DNA from: an uncultured Ruficoccus sp. | Lineage (GTDB): Bacteria > Verrucomicrobiota > Verrucomicrobiia > Opitutales > Cerasicoccaceae | DNA: 64,000 nt | Direction: 5' to 3' | Assembly (NCBI GenBank): GCA_965140785.1 | Contig: OZ223481.1 | Coordinates: 480,001-544,000, forward strand | In this document: positions 99 to 13,670 of the stretch, in pieces | Layout: each line of letters opens with the position of its first letter | How positions within the stretch are numbered: position 1 is the stretch's first letter | Made by a program: the position numbers and the translations under genes | Notes under the pieces: generated by a model | Database searches by the model: none | What the model was told of the DNA's origin: nothing | What the model saw: only the letters and a program-made list of their open reading frames with translations

Positions 99-134
99 AT
101 TGATTAGCCCCTGTGTTTGTGCTGAGGTGTGCGT

Positions 135-1055
135 ATGGCAAGGGCTGTTCGCTTTCAGTTTCCGGGTGCGATTTACCATGTGCTCAATCGTGGGAACTAC
201 CGTAAGGATTTGTTTACGGCGGGTGAGAGCGGGGCATGGTTTGTGCGGGCGCTGCAGGAGGCCAGTGAGCAGTGTGGCTGGCGTGTCCATGCCTACGTGG
301 TGATGAGTAACCACTATCACCTGGTGGTGGAGACGCCGGAGCCGAACCTGGTCGATGGGATGCATTGGCTGCAAACGACGTTTGCGAGCCGCTTCAATCG
401 CTCGATGGGCGAGCGCGGGCATGTGTTTCAAGGCCGCTACAAGGCGCTGCTGGTGGCACCGGGTCCTCACTTTACGGGGGTGGTCAATTATGTGCATCTC
501 AACCCCGTACGCGCGGGCCTATGCACGCTGGAGGATTTGAGGAGCTATGGCTTGGGCAGCTATGGCCACTTTTTTCGCAAACATCGTCCCGACTGGCTGG
601 TGCGCGCGGAATTCCTCGGCCAACTGCACCTGCCCGACAGCCTGAAAGGGATGAACACTTACGCAAAAATGCTAGCATTGGCCGATGAGCAAGACCCCGA
701 AAAACGGGCGTCGCTGAGTCGCGAATATTGCCGGGGCTGGCTGATCGGTGACAAGGCCTACCGCGAGCAAGTCCTGGAGCGCATGAACAAGCATGAGTTG
801 CGGGGGAGCCACTGCGGTGACGATGTCCGCAACCTCAACGAGTTTCGTTGGGAACAGGCGCTGGCAGAACAACTCAAGCAGCACGAAAAATCGTCAGAAG
901 ACATTACCCGCGCCCCCAAGGCCGCTGATTGGAAAATCGCAATTGCCCGGCACATGCGCACCCACACCCGCGCCACCAATCCCTGGCTCGCAAAAAAGCT
1001 CTCCATGGGCCATCCCTCACGCGTCAGCAACTTGATATACAATCGCGACATTTAA
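135..1055 (+). CDS. REP-associated tyrosine transposase (Y1_Tnp/IS200-like HUH family)
   Basis: MARAVRFQFPGAIYHVLNRGN start, HUH motif MSNHYHLV, FQGRYKA, catalytic Tyr in YVHLNPVRAG, C-terminal HTH-like region. Confidence 0.9.
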   Translation: MARAVRFQFPGAIYHVLNRGNYRKDLFTAGESGAWFVRALQEASEQCGWRVHAYVVMSNHYHLVVETPEPNLVDGMHWLQTTFASRFNRSMGERGHVFQGRYKALLVAPGPHFTGVVNYVHLNPVRAGLCTLEDLRSYGLGSYGHFFRKHRPDWLVRAEFLGQLHLPDSLKGMNTYAKMLALADEQDPEKRASLSREYCRGWLIGDKAYREQVLERMNKHELRGSHCGDDVRNLNEFRWEQALAEQLKQHEKSSEDITRAPKAADWKIAIARHMRTHTRATNPWLAKKLSMGHPSRVSNLIYNRDI

Positions 1056-1099: not shown

Positions 1100-1534
1100 G
1101 TGCTACGGCAGGACCTTGAGGCTGCCGGGATCGCTTATCAGGACGAGGAGGGCCGCTATGTGGACTTCCATTCCCTGCGGCATACCTGGGGCACGTTTTT
1201 GCAGGTCAACGGCGTGACGCAGCGCGAGGCTATGGAGTTAATGCGCCATCAGGACGAGCGGCTAACGTCGAAGATTTACACCGACACGCACCACCTGCGG
1301 CTCTTTGAGAAAGTCGAGGCTTTGCCCGCCCTCGAAAAAGGGTCACACATAGGGTCACAGATTTCTGGTAACTCGGGCAAAGTCCTGACAAAACGTGGCA
1401 TAAACAGTCACGATAATTCCGTTTCGGAACCTGTTGAATCTGAGTCGGTTTGCGCCGTTCTGACCCCGCCTGACACAGGCGGGAAAGTGGCGTCCCCACG
1501 GGGAGGTGATGCTTTGAGTCTTCTGTGCTGTTGA
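1100..1534 (+). pseudogene. C-terminal fragment of a tyrosine integrase (older tRNA-Glu island)
   Basis: DFHSLRHT (HxxR), LMRH and catalytic Tyr in SKIYTD present. The N-terminal part with the first Arg is missing (in-frame stop at 1061). The ORF runs into the att repeat. Confidence 0.85.
1484..1504. repeat. att direct repeat, distal end of island (tRNA-Glu 3' end duplicate)
   Basis: AAAGTGGCGTCCCCACGGGGA, identical to 13589-13609. Confidence 0.95.
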
Positions 1535-1630
1535 AAATCAGCGCCTTATGTAATTGTCTCAAGCGGGCGATAGCTACGTTTTGTGACCAAATATATAACA
1601 GGGCAAATGATGGTATGAAAAGGCTAAAAA

Positions 1631-2017
1631 CTAGAAAGTCTCTGGATCGCGTTCGTGGACTTCAGGAATATTGGTGGAAAAAGTGATGGTTGAGTTGTCA
1701 TAATCAATATGAAAATCAACGACTTCATCGTAATCATACTCTGGTATCATATCCTTGCATCCCATATAGGCTTCGCCCCGAAACGAAACATTTAAGTATC
1801 CTTGCTCCGGGTTTTCAAAAGACACATCACCTGCCCAATCTACCCCGCAAAACGTTTCACGTATATTCTGACAAAAGCCTGCGAAAAGAGTTTCTTCCTC
1901 ATCGCTAGATAATTTATCAAAAAATAATTTGATCAGCGCTTCTTTGTCTGAAAGAGCATTGCCTTTAAGTACCTCTAGATCTTCTTCAAAGATGTACTCT
2001 GTTACAGATGCTTCCAT
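1631..2017 (-). CDS. Small, highly acidic hypothetical protein
   Basis: 128-aa ATG-started ORF co-oriented downstream of the HNH gene; about 31 D/E vs about 8 K/R by hand count. Confidence 0.7.
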   Translation of the reverse strand: MEASVTEYIFEEDLEVLKGNALSDKEALIKLFFDKLSSDEEETLFAGFCQNIRETFCGVDWAGDVSFENPEQGYLNVSFRGEAYMGCKDMIPEYDYDEVVDFHIDYDNSTITFSTNIPEVHERDPETF

Positions 2018-2091
2018 TGGTTTAGCAGAACGTTTTTTATTATTCTTTATATCGATTACTTGTATTTTGTTTTATTGTCGATTGATGGCAA

Positions 2092-2727
2092 CTAAGTTTT
2101 TTTAAACCTATCTGTGATCGCTCTAATTCTTGGCAGAAATGTGGAGTCGAACTCTTGTCGAATCATTTCATCTGCGACAAACGGAAGCCTTTTTTGTAAT
2201 TCCGAAAAGCTTATGAAGGAACGAACGTAAAATGATACCCACCTTGTTCTTTCTTCTACCAACCTACTTTTATTTAGCAAGTTGATAGTAGCGCTGTGTC
2301 GCTGAAAGTCGGTTGATGCATTTATTAGAAAAGTTCTAAAATCCAATGTAAACAACCCGTGTGGAATCTCAAAGGGGTCGTCTATGTTGACCGAATCACC
2401 TTTGTCCTGATTTACAAAAGCTCTTGCTAGACGAAAATTATCCCACTCATAAGCCTGATGTGGATTATGACTTTTTGGAATAAAGTGATCCACAGACGAA
2501 TGATCATCGCTCGCCTGAGGATTTCTTGGCATTGGAATCCACGCCGAACAGTAAGCACACACTCCAGAATACAACGTGTATAATTCATTATGAGCACGAC
2601 TCCAATATCGATGGTATTTGAACTCGTGACTCGTAGGATTAGGTGTTCTAGTTAGAAATCTCTGCCCCGGTGTCCTTACCCGCGTGTTGAAGTTAGGGGG
2701 CTCTGGTTGCCGCGTTACTGGTTTCAT
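2092..2727 (-). CDS. HNH endonuclease (Septu PtuB-like)
   Basis: CAYC...SVDHFIPKS...YEWDNFRLA...VNQDKG. ATG at 2727 overlaps the ATPase TGA (ATGA). Confidence 0.85.
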   Translation of the reverse strand: MKPVTRQPEPPNFNTRVRTPGQRFLTRTPNPTSHEFKYHRYWSRAHNELYTLYSGVCAYCSAWIPMPRNPQASDDHSSVDHFIPKSHNPHQAYEWDNFRLARAFVNQDKGDSVNIDDPFEIPHGLFTLDFRTFLINASTDFQRHSATINLLNKSRLVEERTRWVSFYVRSFISFSELQKRLPFVADEMIRQEFDSTFLPRIRAITDRFKKT

Positions 2728-4571
2728 ATCTGAACTCCATGGTCCTCTGCGAATAACAACCAAGTCATCCAGAATTCATCATCAGGAGGTAGAACTTTAA
2801 GTAATTGGTCTGTGAGTTTTTTGACCTCAATCGACGATGCTAGCTTTGGTTCTAATTGAACGGTGCGTGCACGTTTAATTAAAGTTTCAGCATATTTACT
2901 CCTAGGTTCGGCTAGTCCAAATATATCTGAGCTTAGCCAATTATCGACTTTGCCGTGCCGAATGAAATCTTTTTCTTCAAAGTTAACCGTACCGGAGGAA
3001 GTGCAATCTAGGTGAAACGTTTTATCGCTTTCAGAATCAAAAAAACTATCTACAGATGCTAGGACTAATGGAGAATGAGACGCTACTAGTATTTGAATGT
3101 CAATGTCGTCATTCAAACTATTAAAGACACGTATGATTGCAGGTAATAAAATCCTTTGCCACTTCGGGTGTAAGTGTGCTTCAATCTCATCGATTATTAA
3201 AACGATCCTCTGCTCAAATTTATTTCCAGTTTCTCGTGATAATTGTAGATGCCGACTCCAAGTCCAAACAACTAGATAGGCGAGAGTCAGTATTCTACGA
3301 ATTCCCGCTGAGGCCAGTTTTAGGGGGACCTGACCGTACCTGTGTACTATGGAAGGAGTATCTCTGTAGTCTCCAATCAGTCTAATTGGAGGGCCAGCTT
3401 CAATAATCCCCAGGTCTGGTGGGGATAGCTCTTTAAGTGCGAGCATAAGCAGTCGAAACTCGTCGCTATCAGTTGCTTGCCATGAAATCCAGTCTCTGAG
3501 TAGCCCTTCGATAGATGCTTCGTTCCCTTTGAAAACATCGTCTCTTGTAAAGTTCAGGGCTTTTTGACCTATCGCTGTCCTATGCGGGTCCCATACTGAG
3601 AAAGAACCATCCACTCGTGCATAAATGACTAGGCCGGAGAGAGTTGGTCGCTTCCTAGGGGTTTGCCATCGCCCTAATTTTGGTGCAAATTTTAATTCTA
3701 TAGCATCGCCCGGATTATCACTTGATATTTGAAATTTGATAGTTGCGTTCTGGGGGGAAACCGCGCTTGTGGGGTAGGCTTGTTCGGCTGCCCATTCCCC
3801 TGTCAAAGCCCACCATGCCATATCGAGAATGAAGGTTTTGCCCAAACCATTATCTCCTGTGATGAGGTTGAGTCTTTCCCCAAGACTCATTTGAAGATTT
3901 TTGATACAACCAGTTCCATGTGCCTCAAGATAGGATAGTATACCGCCCGATTCGGGTTCAAGATCGGGGGGCGCAGAAAAGTGATTCAGAATGGCATTCG
4001 GTTCGAGGGGCAAGCTGTCGAACTTGAGCCGGTTAGCCAATGGTTGTAGGTCGAATAACTTATTCTGCTCCTCTGCGTTTACGGCGAAATAATCGGTGAA
4101 TTTAGCGATAATATCTGAGCTGGTCGTCTGATCCGACCAAGCCTCTTTTTTGAAAATCCAACACGCCAGAGGCAGCATTGGGATTTTTTTGGAATTTAGA
4201 AGTGCCTGTTGAAGTATGTCTATATAGTTCGGAGACCATCCCCATTTACTGCTCTTTTTCTCATGTAAAAAAGCGCTCTTGAAGGTGCGGGTATTGACAC
4301 TTTGCAATCCTTTTCCGGCATAATCGGGTCGTAGCCAGTCTTGGTTCTTCTCGTTGAACCTTAGCACTCGAAAAAACCATCTTGAACGAGGGTGGATTCG
4401 ATAATGTCTGACTAAAAAGTCTTTGTTCAGGTTATCTAGACTAATATCTATCTGGGAACCGACCGGTAGTCGCACTTCTTTGCAAGAAAGATAGCTTGTG
4501 CCAAAAAAAACATTAAAGTCTTTGAGTAATCTGATGGACTCAAGCAACGAATCTGCTGATATGTATTTCAT
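2724..4571 (-). CDS. ABC-type/AAA_21 ATPase (Septu PtuA-like) with an extra ~200-aa N-terminal domain
   Basis: Walker A GDNGLGKT, signature-like ASAGIRR, Walker B IIDEIEAHLHPKWQR, H-loop ASHSP. Confidence 0.88.
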   Translation of the reverse strand: MKYISADSLLESIRLLKDFNVFFGTSYLSCKEVRLPVGSQIDISLDNLNKDFLVRHYRIHPRSRWFFRVLRFNEKNQDWLRPDYAGKGLQSVNTRTFKSAFLHEKKSSKWGWSPNYIDILQQALLNSKKIPMLPLACWIFKKEAWSDQTTSSDIIAKFTDYFAVNAEEQNKLFDLQPLANRLKFDSLPLEPNAILNHFSAPPDLEPESGGILSYLEAHGTGCIKNLQMSLGERLNLITGDNGLGKTFILDMAWWALTGEWAAEQAYPTSAVSPQNATIKFQISSDNPGDAIELKFAPKLGRWQTPRKRPTLSGLVIYARVDGSFSVWDPHRTAIGQKALNFTRDDVFKGNEASIEGLLRDWISWQATDSDEFRLLMLALKELSPPDLGIIEAGPPIRLIGDYRDTPSIVHRYGQVPLKLASAGIRRILTLAYLVVWTWSRHLQLSRETGNKFEQRIVLIIDEIEAHLHPKWQRILLPAIIRVFNSLNDDIDIQILVASHSPLVLASVDSFFDSESDKTFHLDCTSSGTVNFEEKDFIRHGKVDNWLSSDIFGLAEPRSKYAETLIKRARTVQLEPKLASSIEVKKLTDQLLKVLPPDDEFWMTWLLFAEDHGVQI

Positions 4572-5404
4572 TGGACAGCCTCATTTAAAATATATCTACA
4601 ATAGTCTTCATTGAGTTCGATTCCAATAGCGTTTCTACCTTCGCTAAGAGATACTCGCAACGTAGTTCCGCTTCCTGCAAAGGGGTCAAGGACACTGCCG
4701 CCAACAGGGCAGCCGATTTGAATGCATCGATGGACCAATTCATCTGGAAATGCAGCCGTATCAATCTCACCTCTAACCTTTGGTCTTGGGCTGATAGTCC
4801 AAACGTCTTCATCGATGCGATTGTTCTTTAGGTGTTCCCGATTGAAATAATATCTCCTACTTTTTGCGAACATAAATACAAACTCGTATGACCTCCTTGG
4901 TCGGTCACGCACGGATTCCGGAAGGCATTTTTCTCGATGCCAAATTATTGAGCTTCGCAATACCCACTCGGATTCGCAAAGCCTCATTGCGATTCTCCAA
5001 GGTATCCCTATCAATGATTTTCTTTGTAGTCCGACTCCTAAGCCTCCGCTTCTATCGACTGCCCGTAGTCCGAACCTTCGCTTTTTACTTTTAGCATCCT
5101 TACCCTGCGACTGGCCCTTGCCAGAATAGTAGGTGTCACCTATATTGAGAAAAAATGTTCCCTCTGGCTTGAGGATTCTTTTAAGTTGTTCTCCTACCAA
5201 AAACAATGACTCGACATAATCTGCTATAGAGTTTTCAAGTCCAATCTGACCATCGACCCCATAGTCACGTAGCCAAAAATATGGGGGGGAAGTAATAATG
5301 CAATCTACTGATTCTGAAGGAATTTGCGTGAGACAGTCATGGGCATCCCCGCAATGAAGCTGCCAAGTGTTCCCTGCTATATTTAGTCCATTCCATTGAG
5401 GCAT
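4568..5404 (-). CDS. Site-specific DNA methyltransferase, N4-C/N6-A beta class
   Basis: Catalytic TSPPY precedes SAM-binding LDPFAGSGTT. SPPY suggests m4C. TGA overlaps the ATPase ATG. Alternative TTG start at 5443. Confidence 0.93.
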   Translation of the reverse strand: MPQWNGLNIAGNTWQLHCGDAHDCLTQIPSESVDCIITSPPYFWLRDYGVDGQIGLENSIADYVESLFLVGEQLKRILKPEGTFFLNIGDTYYSGKGQSQGKDAKSKKRRFGLRAVDRSGGLGVGLQRKSLIGIPWRIAMRLCESEWVLRSSIIWHREKCLPESVRDRPRRSYEFVFMFAKSRRYYFNREHLKNNRIDEDVWTISPRPKVRGEIDTAAFPDELVHRCIQIGCPVGGSVLDPFAGSGTTLRVSLSEGRNAIGIELNEDYCRYILNEAVQ

Positions 5405-5466
5405 AAGCTTGATATACAAGTAAATAAAGACGTCGTTGTGCAATCACCAAAATAGTTGGTGTCCGT

Positions 5467-5494
5467 GTTCACAAAAACGACCGTTTCCCTGAAC
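5467..5494. promoter_or_regulatory. Candidate res subsite for the serine recombinase
   Basis: Imperfect palindrome GTTCACAAAAACGACCGTTTCCCTGAAC in the AT-rich gap upstream of the resolvase. Confidence 0.4.
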
Positions 5495-5603
5495 TCCAAC
5501 TCCACTTAGCAGACATATGAGAGAAAAAGGGATTATTGGTTCAATAAACTGGTTTTTAAAAATAGAGTTTACAAAACCAAAATTTCACGAGTAATGTAAA
5601 CTC

Positions 5604-6185
5604 ATGAAGTTTGGCTACGCTCGTGTTTCCACTGCGGATCAAAACCTAGACCTGCAAATTGATGCTCTCCAAAAGGAGGGCTGCGAGAAAATCTTTAAAG
5701 ACAAGATTTCAGGCGCGAAGATCGAGCGCCCGGAATTCGACAAGATGCGCCAACTCCTGCGGGAGGGGGATATTGTCGTCGTCTACAAGCTGGATCGCTT
5801 GGGCAGAAGCTTAAGGCATCTCGTGGAGATTGTCTCTGACTTTCAGGAAAATAAGGTCAGCTTCAAATCCCTGAACGATCCCATTGATACCACAACCTCT
5901 CAAGGGAAGCTGATTTTCAACATATTCGCCTCTCTGGCTGAGTTTGAGCGCGATTTGATCCGGGAGAGGACTCGGGCCGGGTTGGACTCTGCAAGGGCTA
6001 GAGGGCGCCTTGGAGGCCGTCCTAAGGGGCTTTCCGCTGAGGCAGAGCAGAAGGCGATTATCTGCGAGTCTCTATACCGTGAAGGCAAGCACACGGTAAA
6101 CAATATTGCACGTCAACTGAAGCTGTCTAAGGCGACTCTCTACAAGTATCTGAGGCATAGGGGCGTCGAGATCGCCCAATCCTAG
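5604..6185 (+). CDS. Small serine recombinase (resolvase/invertase)
   Basis: GYARVST catalytic Ser, KLDRLGRS, LAEFER, GRLGGRP, C-terminal HTH. Confidence 0.95.
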   Translation: MKFGYARVSTADQNLDLQIDALQKEGCEKIFKDKISGAKIERPEFDKMRQLLREGDIVVVYKLDRLGRSLRHLVEIVSDFQENKVSFKSLNDPIDTTTSQGKLIFNIFASLAEFERDLIRERTRAGLDSARARGRLGGRPKGLSAEAEQKAIICESLYREGKHTVNNIARQLKLSKATLYKYLRHRGVEIAQS

Positions 6186-6240
6186 CCATCATTGGCCGGT
6201 GCTGATTCCCTCCCCTGCGGAACGTGTAGTCACTCCCGCC

Positions 6241-6261
6241 CATTTTGAACCCGGTTCAAAT
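6241..6261. repeat. Island-specific palindromic motif, copy 1
   Basis: CATTTTGAACCCGGTTCAAAT; 20/21 identical to 11398-11418. Confidence 0.8.
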
Positions 6262-6264
6262 GCT

Positions 6265-7437
6265 TCAAAACTTGAGGTTTACATCAGCCTTGAGGGCAGC
6301 CTCTACAGCTTTCCGCATCTGAAGGCGGACTATATGGGCATGTTGCTTCTTGCAGACAATAGAGTCATGCACCGTGCCAAACGGAATTTTGGCCTTAACA
6401 AGCCTTATTCCGACATTATGGATAACTAAGTTCGCTTCCGCGTTCTGAAGGTATATGGCAAACCTTGAGCGATGCCCTTGTTTCTGTGCATCTATCAAGC
6501 CTGAGAGGATTGGGAAAAGCCTTTTCATTGCCTGCCAAAGTTGGCCCGTAGAGGGGGCGCGGTTGAAGAAAATCTGCTGGTAGCAGGCCACTTTGATCTT
6601 TTTACGAATCTTCAGCCTGCCTCCTGCTTCTTTTGCAATCTGAGTGTAGAAGTCCCCTTCAATGAATTTCAAGTAACGCGCCATTTCCTCCCGATGGGCT
6701 TTACTCCGGCGATTATAGAGGGTGGCAGATAGTAGAGGCTGTGCGCTTGGTATATCGACTTCAACCACGTCCTCCCCATCGAGAGTAAGCAACTTCCGCA
6801 TATCTTTTGGCGTACTGGTCAAGGCGTGAAAACAGCGCTTCGATTGGGGAGATTTTGTAAAAAAGCTGCTCTGCCCATTGACGAAGTCGCGACACATCTC
6901 CCGGTGACTTCGCTTACGCTTCTGGTACCGTCGAATGAGGACATCTACGTCGGACTTGAACTTGAATCTCTCCAGATTTTCTCGAATAGCATCATAGGGG
7001 AAGCCGACTGCCAATTCCGGTTGAGTGGCATTGAACTGCCTTACTCGCTTGAGGCACCGAGTATCTACAATCTTCATTTTCAGCTGACGGAGATTGGCGT
7101 AGGCAGGCTTTAAGCGATAACAAATCGATTTCTCTCCGGGAATATATCGGTGATCGCATTCAATCACACCCAAATCTTCCAACATATCTCGGGCCTCTCG
7201 TGCATACCCTTGACCAAGCAGGCGCTTCAGCATCGATCCTTTGATTTGCACCCATCCGTCATCCCCCTCTCTGGAGTATGCAGCTACAAACCCAATCCAG
7301 TTTATCAGGGTAATAAACAACAAAGCTTTGTGATGCCGTTCAACGCGAAGACTGTAATACTGAGGCATTCGCTCCTTCCTGGCGATTGCCCCTAGGTCAA
7401 ACCCCTTTGGAAGTAGGTAATACTCTGGCACCTTCAT
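6265..7437 (-). CDS. Minimal family-A-like polymerase (TV-Pol-like putative primase/replication protein)
   Basis: Motif A-like VEVDIPSAQP, motif B-like RKKIKVACYQQIFF, LQNAEA helix, motif C TVHDSI. No exonuclease domain. Confidence 0.6.
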   Translation of the reverse strand: MKVPEYYLLPKGFDLGAIARKERMPQYYSLRVERHHKALLFITLINWIGFVAAYSREGDDGWVQIKGSMLKRLLGQGYAREARDMLEDLGVIECDHRYIPGEKSICYRLKPAYANLRQLKMKIVDTRCLKRVRQFNATQPELAVGFPYDAIRENLERFKFKSDVDVLIRRYQKRKRSHREMCRDFVNGQSSFFTKSPQSKRCFHALTSTPKDMRKLLTLDGEDVVEVDIPSAQPLLSATLYNRRSKAHREEMARYLKFIEGDFYTQIAKEAGGRLKIRKKIKVACYQQIFFNRAPSTGQLWQAMKRLFPILSGLIDAQKQGHRSRFAIYLQNAEANLVIHNVGIRLVKAKIPFGTVHDSIVCKKQHAHIVRLQMRKAVEAALKADVNLKF

Positions 7438-7487
7438 GAAGTTCCCTTCTTTCCGCTCATAGTTCCGTCTATGATCCCCCCTCCTAT

Positions 7488-7518
7488 TTATGATTCCGGT
7501 TTGAACCCGAAATCATAA
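7488..7518. promoter_or_regulatory. Imperfect hairpin upstream of the polymerase gene containing the TTTGAACCCG core
   Basis: TTATGATTCCGGTTTGAACCCGAAATCATAA. Confidence 0.5.
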
Positions 7519-7602
7519 TTTTAGGTCATTCATGGATATGGTGAACAATCGCTTGTCGCAAGCGTATAGAGCATAGGAGATGAGATGCGGATACTCCTAG
7601 AC

Positions 7603-8346
7603 CTACCAGCTCACGACCCATCGAACGGGTATCTGTTCGGTGCCGTTGTCGCAGTTGGGGCAGGGATACCAGCGGTCGGGGGATTTCCCTTTTTCGATCT
7701 CGCCCCGCAAGCTGCCTTTGCCGTGGCAGAGGGGGCACGGGATGGCTTCGACATCGTAAATGATCAGCGTCCTTTTCCTGTCCCGAAGGATTGAAGTAAA
7801 ATCCGTTTGGCTCAGGCCGTTGCCAGACGGATTAATGTCCGGGGTCCATTCCTGTACTCTGCGTACGGTGCGAGTTGCTCCAATCACGCTCATGTATTGA
7901 TATGTCCCTGCGTCGAAATAGTAGAGGTAGACTTCTTGATCGTCTAAGACCTTGCGGGAATCACCCAACACCAGCGCAACCACTTCGCTGCCATTCGATC
8001 TGGGAGTGGCCAGACTGGGAGCGCCCTTGTAGGGGCTGGCCTGAAAGACTTTAAAGTACCCCTGTTTAGGATAATGGTCAGGGAGAATGATGGGGACATC
8101 GCCGGGGGCGAGATACTGCTTTTGCCAGAGATGAAACAGGCGCAGCAGGGTTTCGCGGGGGTATTTGCTGCTTCCGGTTTCGCCAACCCGAAACTCTCTA
8201 ACGTCCATACGCGCTTCGAAGGACGGGGGTGAACCATAATTTGTCGGGTGGCCTGTCAACGTATCGCCCGCTAGGGGCGAGGTCGCGAAGCTGGCCAGCA
8301 CTACAAGATTGCGCAACAGCATTAACATTCTATTTCCGTCACTCAC
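7603..8346 (-). CDS. Secreted hypothetical protein with C-terminal DnaJ-type zinc-finger motifs
   Basis: Signal-peptide-like N-terminus; CPLCHGKG...CPNCDNG. GTG start overlaps the upstream TGA. Confidence 0.65.
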   Translation of the reverse strand: MSDGNRMLMLLRNLVVLASFATSPLAGDTLTGHPTNYGSPPSFEARMDVREFRVGETGSSKYPRETLLRLFHLWQKQYLAPGDVPIILPDHYPKQGYFKVFQASPYKGAPSLATPRSNGSEVVALVLGDSRKVLDDQEVYLYYFDAGTYQYMSVIGATRTVRRVQEWTPDINPSGNGLSQTDFTSILRDRKRTLIIYDVEAIPCPLCHGKGSLRGEIEKGKSPDRWYPCPNCDNGTEQIPVRWVVSW

Positions 8347-9026
8347 TTTGATTTATCCTTCACGCCCTGAGGCTTCTTGGCCAAGTCCTTGAATTTATCG
8401 AAATAAGGCTGGAAAACAGCTTCCAACCAAAGGCGGTTCGCCATGCGCTGGGCAGCGGCTCCACCTGCGGAAGAGGACGCTTGGGCATAATTGCCAAGGT
8501 CGCTCTCAAGCGAAGACTGGATAAACGCGATTCTCTCCAACAGGTTCTCAGCCTCTATCTTGACCACGTAGCCGCAATAGCGCCGGTAAATGCCGGGGTC
8601 CACATCTGTTCTCTCCCCGCTCACATGGGTGTGATTAGCCCTTCTGCTGGCTTCCGTGTATTTGACGGGTTGCGGGATTGTATTGGCGGGAAAGTCGTTG
8701 ATGAGTGTCTGAATCTTTGCCTCAAGCGCTTCGTGCTGCTGGCGTTTCTGCTCGACGAACTTCCGTGTGGGAGCATCGAGCATTTCCAGCGGAATTGTTA
8801 CCTTCATTGGGTCTCCTTTCACATCCCGGTAGTCCAACCGCTCAACGATTACGGATGTATCATCGGCAGAGATATAAATGCCCTGAATCGAACGCCCATC
8901 GACAGAAGTAAACGTATCAGCGGGAGCGGCTTCCTCAGTATTCCCTTGGGCCGCATGCAAGGGGTAGAGAGAAGTTAGCAGGATCAGGACACCCACAGGA
9001 TACATTTTCAAATGCCGTAATTTCAT
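8343..9026 (-). CDS. Secreted protein with SHD1-like domain
   Basis: Signal peptide ending LHA; TFTSVDGRSIQG...IPLEMLD resembles the SHD1 domains common in PVC bacteria. Start uncertain (up to 9080). Confidence 0.6.
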   Translation of the reverse strand: MKLRHLKMYPVGVLILLTSLYPLHAAQGNTEEAAPADTFTSVDGRSIQGIYISADDTSVIVERLDYRDVKGDPMKVTIPLEMLDAPTRKFVEQKRQQHEALEAKIQTLINDFPANTIPQPVKYTEASRRANHTHVSGERTDVDPGIYRRYCGYVVKIEAENLLERIAFIQSSLESDLGNYAQASSSAGGAAAQRMANRLWLEAVFQPYFDKFKDLAKKPQGVKDKSK

Positions 9027-9180
9027 CGGGAGGGATGGCATATTTGCGCTTCCCGTATGGGGCACGCTGTATGAGTTCATCCCGTTTTTTAGCCCGCTAG
9101 TTAGATGACAGGCAACCTAAAAATGCTACGTATATGGTGTAGATGTATTTGCATCAAAAAGATATTCTACCTGCGCAAGC

Positions 9181-9411
9181 ATGGGGACAGAGGCAAAGAA
9201 GGAGTTACGACAACTTGGCGAGGCGATTCGAGTCGCCCGCAAGCAGATGAATGTTAGCCAAGAAGACTTTGCCGAATGGTGCGACCTTCACCGAACCTAC
9301 ATCGGCCATGTCGAGCGTGGAGAGGTCAATGTCTCGTTCAGGAATGTCCTGAAGATCGCCGCCGCGTTGAAGATGAAGCCTTCTGTCTTGCTGGATGCGG
9401 CGAATCTTTGA
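9181..9411 (+). CDS. XRE-family HTH regulator (R-M controller C-protein-like)
   Basis: SQEDFAEWCDLHRTYIGHVERGEVNVSFRNVLKIAAAL. Confidence 0.9.
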   Translation: MGTEAKKELRQLGEAIRVARKQMNVSQEDFAEWCDLHRTYIGHVERGEVNVSFRNVLKIAAALKMKPSVLLDAANL

Positions 9412-9685
9412 TCGATGTTTGCTCCCTGTGCTTCTGTAAGCAGCGGACAAATTCATCTTCTGTGATTCTCACAGCCCATACCTCTCCTAGAAATTCGGCA
9501 TCTGGGGCAATATTATGGGTAACGTTCAAAACCTTGAAGTAACCTTGATCGTAAATTTCGATCTCTTCGCCTTGGCATGGTAGTCGAAGAACCTCATAAT
9601 ATTCATGGTTCTTCCAGACTGTCGAACCCGGTTCATGGGTGTGGAGGTATATTTTTACCGTAGGTATCATATGGTTGTTTTTCAT
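9338..9685 (-). CDS. Hypothetical protein downstream of terL
   Basis: ATG 5 bp after the terL stop; 3' end overlaps the convergent XRE gene. Confidence 0.45.
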   Translation of the reverse strand: MKNNHMIPTVKIYLHTHEPGSTVWKNHEYYEVLRLPCQGEEIEIYDQGYFKVLNVTHNIAPDAEFLGEVWAVRITEDEFVRCLQKHREQTSIKDSPHPARQKASSSTRRRSSGHS

Positions 9686-9689
9686 AATT

Positions 9690-10997
9690 TTATGCTAGCG
9701 CTATGGTTGACCTTGGCCGGTGATAGAGGGCTCCCAGCACGGCGTCAGCCCGATCCGGGGAAGACAGGCCGCGTGCGTGTAGTTGCGCCTTGGGTTCGAT
9801 CTGGACCTGTCCCCGGCTGTTAAGGGTGTACTGACGCGAGACAAGCTGCTCGTGGAGGAGTTTATCGGGCGGAAGGATGATTCCCCCTGTCTTAATCTTT
9901 TCCGCCCCTTCCAGCCAAATCTCTGTCCCCATATTGGCGTAGGCTTCGCTGTTCTTGGCCGGTTTCTCGTTGCGGATGCGGTTCACCTTCCACCCCTCTT
10001 CTTTCAGGCGGTCGCAGATGGGGATTCCGAGCCCGGAGCCATCGGCGCTGATATCTTGGGGCGTGAGCCCATGTTCGCGGAAGAGGCGGATGAACTCTCC
10101 GACTGCGGACATGGTGTCCCGCTCCCGCCATGCCTTGGCGATCTGGACGCGATTGCCGCGCCGGATAGCCAGGACATTTTCATCGCCCCCTGCCGCGAAG
10201 TCACAGAAGGCGTGTGTCTCGCCATCGGTGAAGGGGGTTTGCGCCTGTAGACACTGCTCAAGCGCGGATAGGGGGACAACGCAGCGGTCCCCGTCCTGTT
10301 CGGGGAACTCCGCATGGATCATGCTGCGAACGAGCGGGCTGTCTTCCCCGTATTTTTCAATCTGTTCGTCGATCCATTTCTGGGGGATATGCGGGCAGTC
10401 AAAGGAGGTTACCGTGAAAGGACGGAAGAAGCGACGCTCGGTGGTAAATGCCCGGTAGAACTTGCCCCGGCGCGGGCCGGGCGAACTCATCAGGAGGACA
10501 CGCGTGGGCTGGCAGCGGTCTATCGCCTCAAAGATTTCATCGGGGATGGACTTGGCTTCGTCGCAGATGACGAGGAGGTTGTCGTTGTGCCAGCCTTCGA
10601 AGCGCCCCGGATCATCAGTCGAAAAGCCGTAGATGCGTGACCCTGTGGGCGTCTCGACTTCGGTTTCCAGAAATTTCCAGTGCGGGAAAAGGTGCTGATA
10701 GGCGCGGATGCCGGGATAGAACTGTTCCTTGACCTGACGGAAGACGCCCGCCGTAACCAGCGTCATACTGCCGGGGAATACGGCAGCATGCCAGAGTGCG
10801 AGCGGGACACCTAGGCTGGAGGTCTTGCCCGTGCCGTTTCCCGCCTTGATGGCAACGGAGCTTCCCCGCTTATCCAGCGCCGCTAGGGCGTCCTGCTGCC
10901 ATGGGTATAGCTCCATGCCCAAAACGCCTCTGGCGAAGCCGTAGGGCAGGTGTAGGAGGCTTGCAGGGTCATTCGCTGTCGGTGCTGCTGCCTTCAT
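9690..10997 (-). CDS. terL: Phage terminase large subunit
   Basis: LYPWQ Q-motif, Walker A GNGTGKT, Walker B VICDEA, coupling motif SSP, nuclease FCDFA...ADGSGLG...SPDRADA. Confidence 0.9.
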   Translation of the reverse strand: MKAAAPTANDPASLLHLPYGFARGVLGMELYPWQQDALAALDKRGSSVAIKAGNGTGKTSSLGVPLALWHAAVFPGSMTLVTAGVFRQVKEQFYPGIRAYQHLFPHWKFLETEVETPTGSRIYGFSTDDPGRFEGWHNDNLLVICDEAKSIPDEIFEAIDRCQPTRVLLMSSPGPRRGKFYRAFTTERRFFRPFTVTSFDCPHIPQKWIDEQIEKYGEDSPLVRSMIHAEFPEQDGDRCVVPLSALEQCLQAQTPFTDGETHAFCDFAAGGDENVLAIRRGNRVQIAKAWRERDTMSAVGEFIRLFREHGLTPQDISADGSGLGIPICDRLKEEGWKVNRIRNEKPAKNSEAYANMGTEIWLEGAEKIKTGGIILPPDKLLHEQLVSRQYTLNSRGQVQIEPKAQLHARGLSSPDRADAVLGALYHRPRSTIALA

Positions 10998-11400
10998 AGC
11001 GCTTTCTGGCCTCCGCAATCGCGTTCAGTGTGGTCTCATCGATCCCCAGCCGATGATTGATCGTCCCCTCGTGCCGGTGGGCAACCTCTAGGCGGCTCTT
11101 GGCGAAGTGTTCCGGGCGCACATGCTCCAGCCACCATTTGGCGGCGCTCAGGTCTCCGGCGTCTATCGCTTCCCGTATCGCCTTCAGGCGGGTTGCCACG
11201 CCCCTAGCCAACGCCTTGTCTATGGCCTCAGAAAACTCAGGAAACTTCCGCCGCCATTCGCAGAAGGTCTCATAGGAAATCCCTGCCAGCGCCGCCGCAT
11301 CCTTTAGGGGGAGCCCGTCCCCGATGTGTTCAAGGATGTCCTTGGTCAAGGCGGGCGTCCGCTTCGACGGCCTGCCGCATTTTCTGGTTTTCGTACGCAT
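10969..11400 (-). CDS. terS: Putative terminase small subunit (HTH)
   Basis: GRPSK...KDAAALAGISYETFCEWRRKFPEFSEAI...AAKWWLE; overlaps the terL start. Confidence 0.75.
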   Translation of the reverse strand: MRTKTRKCGRPSKRTPALTKDILEHIGDGLPLKDAAALAGISYETFCEWRRKFPEFSEAIDKALARGVATRLKAIREAIDAGDLSAAKWWLEHVRPEHFAKSRLEVAHRHEGTINHRLGIDETTLNAIAEARKRYEGSSTDSE

Positions 11401-11418
11401 TTTGAACCCGGTGCAAAT
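11398..11418. repeat. Island-specific palindromic motif, copy 2, overlapping the terS ATG
   Basis: CATTTTGAACCCGGTGCAAAT. Confidence 0.8.
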
Positions 11419-11572
11419 TTTGGAAGTTAAAGCGGGCTGCCTATGCCACCTTAACTTACGCAACCCCTACCGGGTTAATAATGTCCGCCAGAAATAGTGT
11501 CAATACATATTGTTGATAGCAAACAGTATGTAACAGATTAGTTGTCAATGGCCGCCTTGTCTTGTCAGGCGT

Positions 11573-13480
11573 TCAGCTCTGTTGAATCTGATAAATGTTC
11601 GGCTTTCTTGTCGGGCGTAATTTATCCAGAGAGAGCCGCTTAAGGTCCAAGCCATAATCGACTTTCTCAATGGCGGTCTTGAGATATTTAATAGTGGGAG
11701 CCTTTTTGTGGATATAATTACTCCTCATCGCATGTTCAAAGAACTTCCTTTCTTGGGTGGACCAGCCGCATAGGGCATCAATGATTCCCAGCTCAAGACC
11801 TGCCTCATGACATGCCGTTGCAAACGTATGCCTAAAGGAATGGAAAACGAGTTCTCGGGTTTTTATTGAGGCGAGCTTTTTAAGGACAACTTCATTGAAC
11901 CATCGCGATACGCCTTGGGGGCGTAGGTTTGGGAAAAGTCTTTGGGAGGTAGGCTCAATGTTTCGTTTGTAATCCATCAAGCCGAGAGCCAGTAGCTTGC
12001 TATGAACGGGAACAACCCTCACGCTGCCCGGTGTTTTTGCTGACTGTCCTTCCTTCGCGTTCGTGATCGAAAAACTGTAAATCTTGTCCTGCTCGACGAT
12101 CTGATCGCAATGAAGCTGGCAAATCTCGCCAAGACGGGCTCCCGTGTAGAGCGCGATTAGGGGCACCCAGAAATATCCGTTATGGATGATGTGATTGCCC
12201 GGACAATTTCGTCGTTTAAGGTTTTTGCAACCGGTGTAGGAGGGGACGGAGAATATCTTCCTGAGCATGTCTGCCTTGAAGGGTTCTCGGACTATGGAGG
12301 CGCTAGCTGTATCTCTCCGGGCATTATTCGTGAATCTGTAGTTCGTTGCCCAACACTTATCGATCAGTCCGGTTTCTTCTGCGAACATGAATGCTCCCCG
12401 TATCCTTCCGAGGGAATTATTGACCGTGTAGTTGTTTCGCCGTGTATCGCCGTCTTTATCTGCGATCTTGATGCATTCTCCATACGATTTACCGAGATAT
12501 TTCTTTCCCGTTCTCGGGGGTAACGCCGCGATCTGCTTTTTTATCAACTGAAAATCATCATAGGTCAGGGTCTTGATGTCTTTGTCTCCAAGGAATTCCA
12601 CCATGACCTCCTTTGAGGTATTCAAATCCGTGCGGATTTTTTTAGAAATTTTTCCTTCTCCCTCAGACTTCTTATACTCTTCGTAGCGTGTGAACAACTG
12701 GGAGATCGTGACCTTTGGCCTTAGCGCTTCATCTGCGATGTGCTCTTGAGGGACTGAAGCGACCATGGCGGCTTCAAGCTTTGCCAATTCCTTGGGGTAG
12801 AAGGGGGTGCTCAAGCGCTTGTCGAGGCAATCCAGCTCCCATCTATGGCATTCGTCCAAGATGCTCCACATGAGGCGGGACAGCTTCTTAAAGCATTTCC
12901 CATCCTCTCGAAGGTGGATATTGTTATCCAAGCAAATTTGCTTGGCCGCTATGACATGCGGCAAGTCGTCATGCCTGCGCCGTCGATTCGAGTGAAGGTC
13001 GTGTAACTCTTGGTGGAGATCGGCCTTGAAGTCCTGAACCTTGCCGGAGACATACTCGGATTCCTTTTCATCTATGGCGATGTCGATAAAATTGAGGAGC
13101 ACATCCCTTTCATTGCTGAACCAATTTTCAAACCACTCATCGATCATCGCGAATAGCTGAGATAGCGGGACTGCATCTATCGGTGCGATTTCCGCGAGTT
13201 TGGCTGTCAATTTGGCATGATGGGAAAGGATATTCTGCCTAAACGGGTGGCGTGGCTGCTGAGTCAGCCTGCGGGCGTCTTCGATCTGCTGATCGAATGT
13301 GGAGAGATTCTTCCGGTGCTGCTTTTCAATCTCTGCGGCAGGTCCGCCGCCTATCTGGACTGTGAGGTATTTTTTACCGATTACGGGCTGCACATCGGCA
13401 GGGACGGGATAGCGGCTGAAGTAGGCTTTTCGTTGCTTGCGAAACGTCAAATATTTGGCCTTGGGCACGGCTTCTTCCAT
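11573..13480 (-). CDS. int: Tyrosine recombinase/integrase
   Basis: YTGARLGEI (R), SAKT (K), FHSFRHT (HxxR), LCGW, RSNY (Y); adjacent to tRNA-Glu. Confidence 0.95.
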   Translation of the reverse strand: MEEAVPKAKYLTFRKQRKAYFSRYPVPADVQPVIGKKYLTVQIGGGPAAEIEKQHRKNLSTFDQQIEDARRLTQQPRHPFRQNILSHHAKLTAKLAEIAPIDAVPLSQLFAMIDEWFENWFSNERDVLLNFIDIAIDEKESEYVSGKVQDFKADLHQELHDLHSNRRRRHDDLPHVIAAKQICLDNNIHLREDGKCFKKLSRLMWSILDECHRWELDCLDKRLSTPFYPKELAKLEAAMVASVPQEHIADEALRPKVTISQLFTRYEEYKKSEGEGKISKKIRTDLNTSKEVMVEFLGDKDIKTLTYDDFQLIKKQIAALPPRTGKKYLGKSYGECIKIADKDGDTRRNNYTVNNSLGRIRGAFMFAEETGLIDKCWATNYRFTNNARRDTASASIVREPFKADMLRKIFSVPSYTGCKNLKRRNCPGNHIIHNGYFWVPLIALYTGARLGEICQLHCDQIVEQDKIYSFSITNAKEGQSAKTPGSVRVVPVHSKLLALGLMDYKRNIEPTSQRLFPNLRPQGVSRWFNEVVLKKLASIKTRELVFHSFRHTFATACHEAGLELGIIDALCGWSTQERKFFEHAMRSNYIHKKAPTIKYLKTAIEKVDYGLDLKRLSLDKLRPTRKPNIYQIQQS

Positions 13481-13588
13481 GGGCTAATTGTTACCAGATT
13501 TGTAACCAACGCCAAGGAGATAGCTTTCGTAAGAAGCTGGTTTCCAACAACCTGTTGATGCCCAAAAACTTTTGCCACTTAAACTTGA

Positions 13589-13609
13589 AAAGTGGCGTCC
13601 CCACGGGGA
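13589..13609. repeat. att direct repeat, tRNA-proximal
   Basis: Identical to 1484-1504; overlaps the tRNA 3' end. Confidence 0.95.
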
Positions 13610-13670
13610 TTCGAACCCCGGTCGCTGGAATGAAAATCCAGTGTCCTAGACCTGACTAGACGATGGGGAC
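13593..13670 (-). tRNA. tRNA-Glu (UUC)
   Basis: Reverse complement GTCCCCA...CTGGA-TTTTCAT-TCCAG...GGTTCGAATCC...TGGGGAC-G-CCA forms a cloverleaf. Confidence 0.97.

Follow-up and report, generated by a model that had tools for sequence, protein, structure and literature searches.

A Septu clade coupled to a DNA methyltransferase: a candidate methylation-gated restriction-modification variant

Septu type I reportedly consists of two proteins, the ABC ATPase PtuA and the HNH nuclease PtuB. Its hallmarks are protection against phage, a PtuA6:PtuB2 assembly, and a nuclease that is inhibited by ATP. How stand-alone Septu senses infection is debated: ATP depletion, phage proteins, DNA nicking, and cleavage of the tyrosine transfer RNA (tRNA-Tyr) are all reported. 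The accessible text of the PADLOC paper (PMC8565338) names only two associates of Septu, the reverse transcriptase (RT)-linked Septu type II and a separate Hma operon. In the retron form, an N-terminal extension of PtuA mediates contact with the partner encoded upstream (accessible text of PMC12819146 and PMC8565338). The restriction system LlaJI acts on unmethylated DNA: its McrB-like R1 protein, which has a unique N-terminal half, alone determines specificity, and cleavage is carried out by R2 (PMC1459862). Branches of McrBC associated with a methyltransferase (MTase) are noted in the accessible part of the CoCoNuT preprint (bioRxiv 10.1101/2023.07.31.551357). Here we describe a three-gene cassette in which an MTase gene is coupled to the two Septu genes. 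It lies in a stretch of 64,000 nucleotides (nt) from an uncultured Ruficoccus sp. (GenBank assembly GCA_965140785.1, contig OZ223481.1, positions 480,001 to 544,000 of the forward strand), and this whole stretch is called the window below. With moderate confidence, we suggest that the cassette is a methylation-gated, LlaJI-like restriction-modification (R-M) variant of Septu.

The cassette is read from the minus strand in the order MTase, PtuA, PtuB (Table 1). ATGA stop/start overlaps join the MTase gene to the ATPase gene (4568-4571) and the ATPase gene to the HNH gene (2724-2727). No minus-strand terminator-like site was found between the three genes; one weak match lies inside the MTase gene. 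An earlier note on this DNA had claimed a three-gene, ATGA-coupled operon, and both overlaps and the three minus-strand open reading frames (ORFs) are indeed present. Its assignments of the three products held as well. The SPPY beta-class MTase matches PF01555 N6_N4_Mtase (E = 3.5e-45), with SPPY present in the translation. The ABC-type ATPase matches AAA_21, AAA_15, and AAA_23, all confined to residues ~216-505. The HNH nuclease matches the PADLOC PtuB model PDLC00348 (E = 9.1e-50) and has the conserved His81, although Pfam is silent. The note had also pointed to about 200 amino acids (aa) ahead of Walker A. This motif falls at residues 239-246, and about 205 to 210 residues precede the ATPase core; the peptides DYAGKGLQSVNTRTFKSAFLH, WGWSPNY, and LACWIF all occur in the ATPase translation. 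A promoter-like match 5' of the MTase start is weak, because the region holds 14 such matches where 8.4 would be expected.

The ATPase and HNH pair, with the N-terminal domain (N-domain) of the ATPase included, are already catalogued Septu proteins. The PADLOC PtuA model PDLC00270 aligns residues 3-615 of the window ATPase with positions 2-627 of its 627 (E = 5.9e-197) and so takes in the N-domain; the shorter PtuA model PDLC00307 matches from residue 212 only. The ATPase carries Walker A (GDNGLGKT), the signature SAGIRR, Walker B (LIIDEIEAHLH), and the H-loop HSP, and the residues of these motifs are invariant in 15 aligned sequences. In PtuB, 38 sequences were compared, and H81, N97, N106, K109, and D117 are each kept in 95% of them or more. 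The HNH protein had no Pfam match, and the NCBIfam TIGR02646 and PtuB models stayed below their cut-offs. The NCBIfam retron PtuA and PtuB models were far under theirs (67.8 versus 500 and 29.6 versus 150). PADLOC treats PtuA and PtuB as a complete system, ignores the MTase, and calls the locus Septu type I. The earlier note's interpretation is supported by those of its refuting conditions that sequence comparison can address. Of the candidate new defence system that it proposed, the ATPase and HNH half is covered by the PADLOC Septu models, and the methylase coupling appears to be the new part of the cassette. Within the available main text of articles on Septu or PtuA with methylases, or on ABC/HNH conflict systems, no methylase-coupled Septu is described.

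The coupling recurs widely. We scanned an alignment of 15 PtuA homologues (A1) against one genome per species. This gave 602 pattern matches, 507 of which encode a relative, and the locus counts of this survey are for the best 80 of these 507 relatives. ORFs in these loci were called from the first ATG, GTG, or TTG, so that starts may be overextended, and were labelled by BLAST. The 80 loci comprise 42 with a long-form PtuA that has the N-domain, 35 with a short-form PtuA that starts near residue 205-225, and 3 in which the ORF caller gave no PtuA ORF (L051, L054, and L065). Pfam found PF01555 in 34 of 72 upstream ORFs, every one in a long-form locus, and tblastn recovered the MTase in two loci that the ORF caller had missed (L041 and L078). 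A PF01555 MTase lies directly upstream of PtuA in 36 of the 42 long-form loci and in 0 of the 35 short-form loci. In the short-form loci, tblastn gave no MTase match in the flanking DNA, which extended as far as 6 kb to either side and less at contig ends. Five of them (L047, L057, L067, L070, and L079) have less than ~600 nt upstream and no upstream ORF to check, four being at a contig end. The short form of L067 is a contig-end artefact, which was dropped from the Fisher exact test (36/6 versus 0/34; p = 9e-16). Among the 36 upstream MTases, 32 are whole, one is cut by the contig end (L002), and three are fragmentary (L005, L044, and L060).

The hosts of the surveyed loci span more than 10 phyla, and an arrangement that recurs in many phyla is not chance. 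In 34 loci, the distance between MTase and PtuA lies between -64 and +31 nt, and in 6 of them the two genes overlap by 4 nt. On viral contigs, both loci that hold the N-domain (2/2) have the MTase directly upstream, at 59-62% identity. The earlier note had proposed a survey of whether the N-domain tracks with MTases, and these counts answer that it does. As a clade, the long forms differ from a self-sufficient two-gene Septu, with the MTase in most loci and PtuAB alone in six lineages.

Other neighbours were seen beside short-form loci. In four Microcoleus loci (L039, L040, L042, and L046), a C5 cytosine methylase (PF00145, E ~1e-75) lies on the same strand upstream of short-form PtuA/PtuB, at ~4360-5930. 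It may be a second, independent coupling of Septu to a methylase, or it may be an ordinary neighbouring R-M or Hma-like gene. One surveyed short-form locus has a Bpu10I fragment upstream.

The pairing of methylase and N-domain is not confined to PtuA. The four best relatives of the window MTase in the plasmid database PLSDB are 48-51% identical to it, and in all four the gene after the MTase encodes an AAA family ATPase, with a third gene behind it. Two of these cassettes were scanned; the ATPase is of the AAA_5 (McrB-like) family, and in one of them (L089) the third gene is PF10117 McrBC. We found by hhalign that the PtuA N-domain profile A2 matches the Mycobacterium plasmid protein of L090 (Prob 96.4%, E = 1.1e-9, 171 columns). 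It also matches A4, an alignment of 18 actinobacterial relatives (Prob 97.7%, E = 2.2e-12, 194 columns), and A5, an alignment of three alphaproteobacterial plasmid proteins (Prob 92.5%, E = 4.8e-7, 146 columns). The motifs Y-P-x-S-x-L-Q-x-x-x-T and L-A-x-W-L are common to the PtuA N-domain and the McrB-like N termini. Therefore, the same domain heads two unrelated nucleoside triphosphatase (NTPase) engines, each encoded directly after the same methylase lineage. The tracking that the earlier note had asked about thus spans unrelated motors, since the domain is likewise found at the front of McrB-like AAA+ ATPases encoded after the closest MTase relatives. This sharing suggests that the methylase and a putative reader form a reusable unit.

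The plasmid homology appears with profiles only: tblastn of the N-domain against PLSDB plasmids gave no match at 1e-5, and tblastn of the L090 N terminus against plasmids returned only itself. A metagenome scan with A4 found 26 loci, matched in the AAA+ part only, and none had an MTase of the window family. The MTase context of the McrB-like N-domain family is consequently that of the four plasmid cassettes. The third gene of L090 (6725-8734, 669 aa) had no Pfam or PADLOC match, unlike the McrC-like third gene of L089.

The window MTase has motif IV SPPY and motif I DPFAGSGTT, and it matches the PADLOC MTase_II model PDLC03387 (E = 1.5e-83). The operon thus combines an MTase that has its catalytic motifs with a nuclease, which is the composition of an R-M system. 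The MTases upstream of long-form PtuA are 50-66% identical to the window enzyme in 28 of 34 cases, from many phyla, and 34-37% identical in six alphaproteobacterial ones. The MTase is better conserved than PtuA, for which the closest homologue other than itself shows 48% identity. Averaged over pairs of sequences, the distance is smallest for the MTase (0.47), followed by the ATPase core (0.53), PtuB (0.59), and the N-domain (0.65). Of 34 MTases, 31 carry SPPY or SPPF as motif IV and the remaining 3 are truncated, and the DPFxGxGT motif is retained across the family alignment. Retention of the catalytic motifs suggests that methylation itself is under selection. High conservation is also seen in the central region GDTYYSGKG..KS.KRRFGLRAVDKSGGLG, and this suggests one common target for the family rather than diversified specificities. 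As a rule, the S-P-P-Y/F motif marks N4-cytosine methylases, and the PDB relatives of the MTase include both N4-cytosine and N6-adenine methylases. We predict that the enzyme is the self-marking modification subunit and that its mark is probably N4-methylcytosine. A distant relative (42% identity) is paired with an XcyI-family type II endonuclease. Therefore, the MTase belongs to a genuine R-M methylase lineage.

The N-domain has no Pfam family. Its AF2 model, made from a 41-sequence alignment, is a very confident one, with a pLDDT of 96.4 and a pTM of 0.92, and Foldseek found no match to this model in the PDB at E <= 1e-3. Among the best matches of an exhaustive VIA search, winged-helix DNA-binding proteins recur, namely GntR, CRP/FNR, histone H1, FOXN1, and the DpnI winged helix. 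When 1.84 billion representatives were searched with a profile of the domain, 375 cluster representatives matched at E <= 1e-3. In the 150 matches listed, the domain is N-terminal in proteins of at most 670 aa or lies in fragments. A complex prediction for the MTase with the N-domain scored 0.00, which gives no verdict either way. We infer that the N-domain binds DNA and reads unmethylated sites.

We then consider loci that lack the methylase. A quick IQ-TREE search on 77 rows, confined to the ATPase core, groups all long forms into a single 44-row clade with an SH-aLRT support of 96. The long forms without an MTase are nested in this clade: five cyanobacterial ones lie around the MTase-bearing L004, and L061 lies beside L032. 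The nesting indicates secondary losses. L032 (5737-7050, with a TetR gene upstream) is a true short-form PtuA inside the long clade, next to the MTase-less L061 (5965-7947). This placement suggests that the N-domain can be lost once the methylase is lost. Where the MTase is missing (six loci), 96-98% of the 94 conserved columns of the ATPase core are retained. For the N-domain, which has 21 conserved columns, the share is 76-86% in four of these loci, and Q90 is replaced in five of the six. In this small sample, such decay fits a sensor that would need disarming after methylase loss. Decaying cassettes were also seen, with MTase remnants in L008 (5751-5943), only a C-terminal MTase fragment in L044 (5621-5947), a split MTase in L005 (283-1211), and a split PtuA in L060 (2788-4727).

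The restriction reading that we favor can be put as a sequence of steps. The SPPY methyltransferase would mark host DNA at a motif probably common to all members of the family, and the mark would probably be N4-methylcytosine. The 205-residue N-domain of PtuA, matched to the methylase, would engage incoming DNA at unmodified sites, by itself or assisted by the methylase. The ABC ATPase would then convert recognition into activation of the bound PtuB, and in this way it would license cleavage by the HNH nuclease. ABC ATPase and HNH nuclease would stand in for the McrB and McrC of LlaJI-type systems. The methylation sensitivity of the cassette, the substrate of PtuB, and an antiphage function are what we infer from sequence.

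A number of observations weigh against this reading. Six of the 42 long-form loci are without an MTase; L008 has remnants only, and L007, L012, L013, L019, and L061 have none. A profile search of the assemblies of these five found no close family member elsewhere, the best score being 96.6 bits, on a scale where tblastn of the window MTase to family members gives ~255-380 bits. Loss of the MTase without replacement implies that PtuAB is not necessarily lethal without it. The decay of the N-domain is confounded by phylogeny, and the MTase-bearing L072 and L078 keep 81% and 71% of the conserved columns. Studied Septu and retron PtuAB are reported to cleave tRNA-Tyr (PMC13096335, PMC12673091, and PMC12819146), so DNA cleavage by the window PtuB is not assured. 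The solved PtuA structures are remote relatives of the window ATPase (8EE4, 8EE7, and 8EEA; PDB E ~1e-8 to 1e-9), and PtuB had no PDB match at E <= 0.01. The likeness of the N-domain to winged helices is weak, with a best VIA Z of 6.0 over residues ~17-125; a Z under 8 may reflect merely a common arrangement, and we claim no fold assignment. The net charge of the domain is near neutral (median +1). Finally, a mirror-tree test on pairwise distances gave no support for co-variation of the MTase and the N-domain beyond that of the core (partial r = 0.13).

PrrC is an anticodon nuclease that is linked to, and guarded by, the type I R-M enzyme EcoprrI. The window cassette might work in a similar, or in a retron-like, manner. 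The MTase protein would dock on the PtuA N-domain and keep PtuAB latent. Its inhibition or removal by a phage factor would then free PtuAB to cause abortive infection, possibly by tRNA cleavage. The strict pairing of MTase and N-domain in two motor contexts fits a docking domain equally well. A guard role would also agree with the regulation of nucleases by ABC ATPases in PrrC and RloC (PMC12065111) and with the reported targeting of tRNA-Tyr by PtuAB of Septu and retrons. However, the MTase catalytic motifs are strictly kept, and a pure protein guard would not need them. Nor does a docking role agree with LlaJI R1, the studied McrB-like analogue, which uses its N-terminal half for DNA specificity. 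What fold likeness the N-domain has, though weak, is to DNA-binding winged helices, and the lineages without an MTase keep an intact ATPase core. On this evidence, we regard a guard role as unlikely.

Methylation sensing could instead drive an abortive effector. The N-domain would read unmodified DNA, and PtuB would cut host tRNA or nick DNA indiscriminately. The association evidence for this version is the same as for restriction, and the PtuAB of Septu and that of retron Eco7/Ec78 are reported to cleave tRNA-Tyr. The window PtuAB clade is, however, remote from the studied ones, as the PDB searches for PtuA and PtuB show, and no tRNA-related feature was seen in the operon. This version is in our judgment rather improbable. 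A broader form of it, which we hold to be just as doubtful, is that the methylase and N-domain are a portable self/non-self cassette fitted to unrelated NTPase-nuclease engines, the Septu version of which triggers a tRNA-directed abortive activity. If true, a restriction-type sensor would be driving an abortive-infection effector. Mere coincidence, in which an ordinary two-gene Septu and a solitary or orphan methylase unrelated to it are neighbours in one defence island, is very improbable: defence genes do cluster, PADLOC counts PtuA/PtuB as complete, and the Microcoleus C5 methylases and the Bpu10I fragment are unrelated neighbours of this kind, but the stop/start overlaps, the recurrence of the same MTase family each time across more than 10 phyla, its confinement to long-form loci, and the N-domain common to the McrB-like partners of the same family bring coincidence close to refutation.

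If the restriction reading is true, the methylase-wired Septu clade would have a simple trigger, unmodified DNA. The ABC-ATPase/HNH engine would then join the known restriction machineries. A reusable unit of methylase plus reader would bear on the modular assembly of restriction systems. Current defence finders label such loci plain Septu and miss the methylase.

The operon is carried by a 12.1-kb island (window 1484-13609). The earlier note had described an integrative element with the operon at its AT-rich cargo end, and the features at the island ends confirm that placement: a perfect 21-nt direct repeat, a tRNA-Glu gene at the integration site, and a tyrosine integrase next to it. The G+C content is 0.43-0.44 at 2001-6000, which spans the operon, and ~0.60-0.65 beyond 14 kb, with ~0.62 for the flanking chromosome. 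Besides the integrase, the island has two terminase-like genes, and no capsid or tail genes were recognised among its proteins. It looks like a phage-satellite-type element with the defence cassette as cargo. Outside the distal repeat is an IS200-like transposase ORF, and a C-terminal fragment of a tyrosine integrase that runs into the repeat may be left over from an element that occupied this tRNA site before.

Two neighbours were considered as further cassette genes. A 128-aa acidic ORF on the minus strand (1631-2017) lies 74 nt downstream of PtuB. It had no Pfam, PADLOC, NCBIfam, or PHROGs match, and we rejected it as a fourth gene because it has neither a family match nor a homologue in the 80 related loci. 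The serine recombinase gene that adjoins the window operon was rejected as a part of the cassette for the PtuA clade, since one is nearby in only 2 of the 42 long-form loci. Small serine recombinases also flank three of the four plasmid cassettes (L089, 3156-3719; L092, 8298-8843; L093, 9032-9589).

Table 1. Features of the cassette and of the surrounding island, in window coordinates
Feature	Position	Strand	Remarks
MTase, beta-class N4/N6 DNA methyltransferase	4568-5404	minus	278 aa from ATG at 5404; ORF 4568-5443
PtuA ABC ATPase, whole gene	2724-4571	minus	615 aa
PtuA N-terminal domain, residues 1-205	3957-4571	minus	predicted target-recognition/reader module matched to MTase
PtuA ATPase core and C-terminal region, residues ~206-615	2724-3956	minus	AAA_21/AAA_15/AAA_23
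PtuB HNH-type nuclease, predicted effector	2092-2727	minus	211 aa from ATG at 2727; ORF 2092-2763
Sigma-70-like promoter match 5' of MTase start	5532-5560	minus	consensus 9/12; weak; possible operon promoter
IS200-like Y1 transposase ORF, outside distal repeat	129-1055		PF01797, E 7.9e-10
Tyrosine integrase C-terminal fragment, runs into 21-nt repeat	1100-1534		Pfam profile positions 113-168 of 172
Distal att-like direct repeat	1484-1504	.	perfect 21-nt repeat with 13589-13609
Serine recombinase	5604-6185		
390-aa protein	6265-7437		no Pfam match; one weak match to a PHROG of unknown function
Helix-turn-helix (HTH) protein	9181-9411		
Terminase large-subunit-like	9690-11018		
Terminase small-subunit-like	10969-11463		
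Tyrosine integrase next to tRNA-Glu	11573-13480		
tRNA-Glu with proximal att-like repeat (13589-13609) at its 3' end	13593-13670	minus	ARAGORN; island integration site

Among described systems, several share one trait with the cassette and differ in others. Hma (PMC8565338) combines a helicase, a 5-methylcytosine (m5C) methylase, and an ATPase, whereas the window has no helicase and its methylase is of the N4/N6 type, not PF00145. PrrC-EcoprrI also links an ABC-ATPase-regulated nuclease genetically to an R-M component. However, PrrC is a single ATPase-nuclease fusion inside a type I R-M locus. MADS, the methylation-associated defence system, also joins a methylase to an ABC/OLD-type ATPase and a nuclease (MAD3-MAD4; PMC13662399), but it is a larger multi-gene system, compared with three genes here. 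The NCBIfam MAD3 model NF047739 scored 35.2 bits against the window ATPase, with a cut-off of 420, so the ATPase is not a MAD3 equivalog.

The retron type I-A, or Septu type II, is composed of an RT, a noncoding RNA, PtuA, and PtuB. It resembles the cassette in that a PtuAB effector is controlled by a partner encoded upstream. In the window, however, the upstream gene encodes a DNA methylase (PF01555) and not an RT. No RT was found among the island ORFs scanned, and no search aimed at a noncoding RNA was made. The cassette shares with Septu type I that the window PtuA and PtuB match the PADLOC models over their full length, that the two genes overlap, and that neither the ATPase motifs nor the HNH histidine have been lost. 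The window clade differs from it by a third coupled gene, the PF01555 methylase, in 36 of 42 loci, and by the 205-aa N-domain that is missing from short-form PtuA.

In its overall design, the cassette comes close to the LlaJI type. In both, a methylase goes together with a separate nuclease and with an NTPase that carries a domain at its N terminus, and in LlaJI unmethylated DNA is restricted. The NTPase-fused N-domain of the window is moreover homologous to the N termini of MTase-linked AAA_5 ATPases. The motor, however, is an ABC ATPase rather than an AAA+ GTPase, and the nuclease is HNH rather than McrC/PD-(D/E)xK. LlaJI also has two m5C methylases, where the window cassette has one SPPY beta-class enzyme. 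By this analogy, the window cassette would work like the LlaJI-type family without being a member of it.

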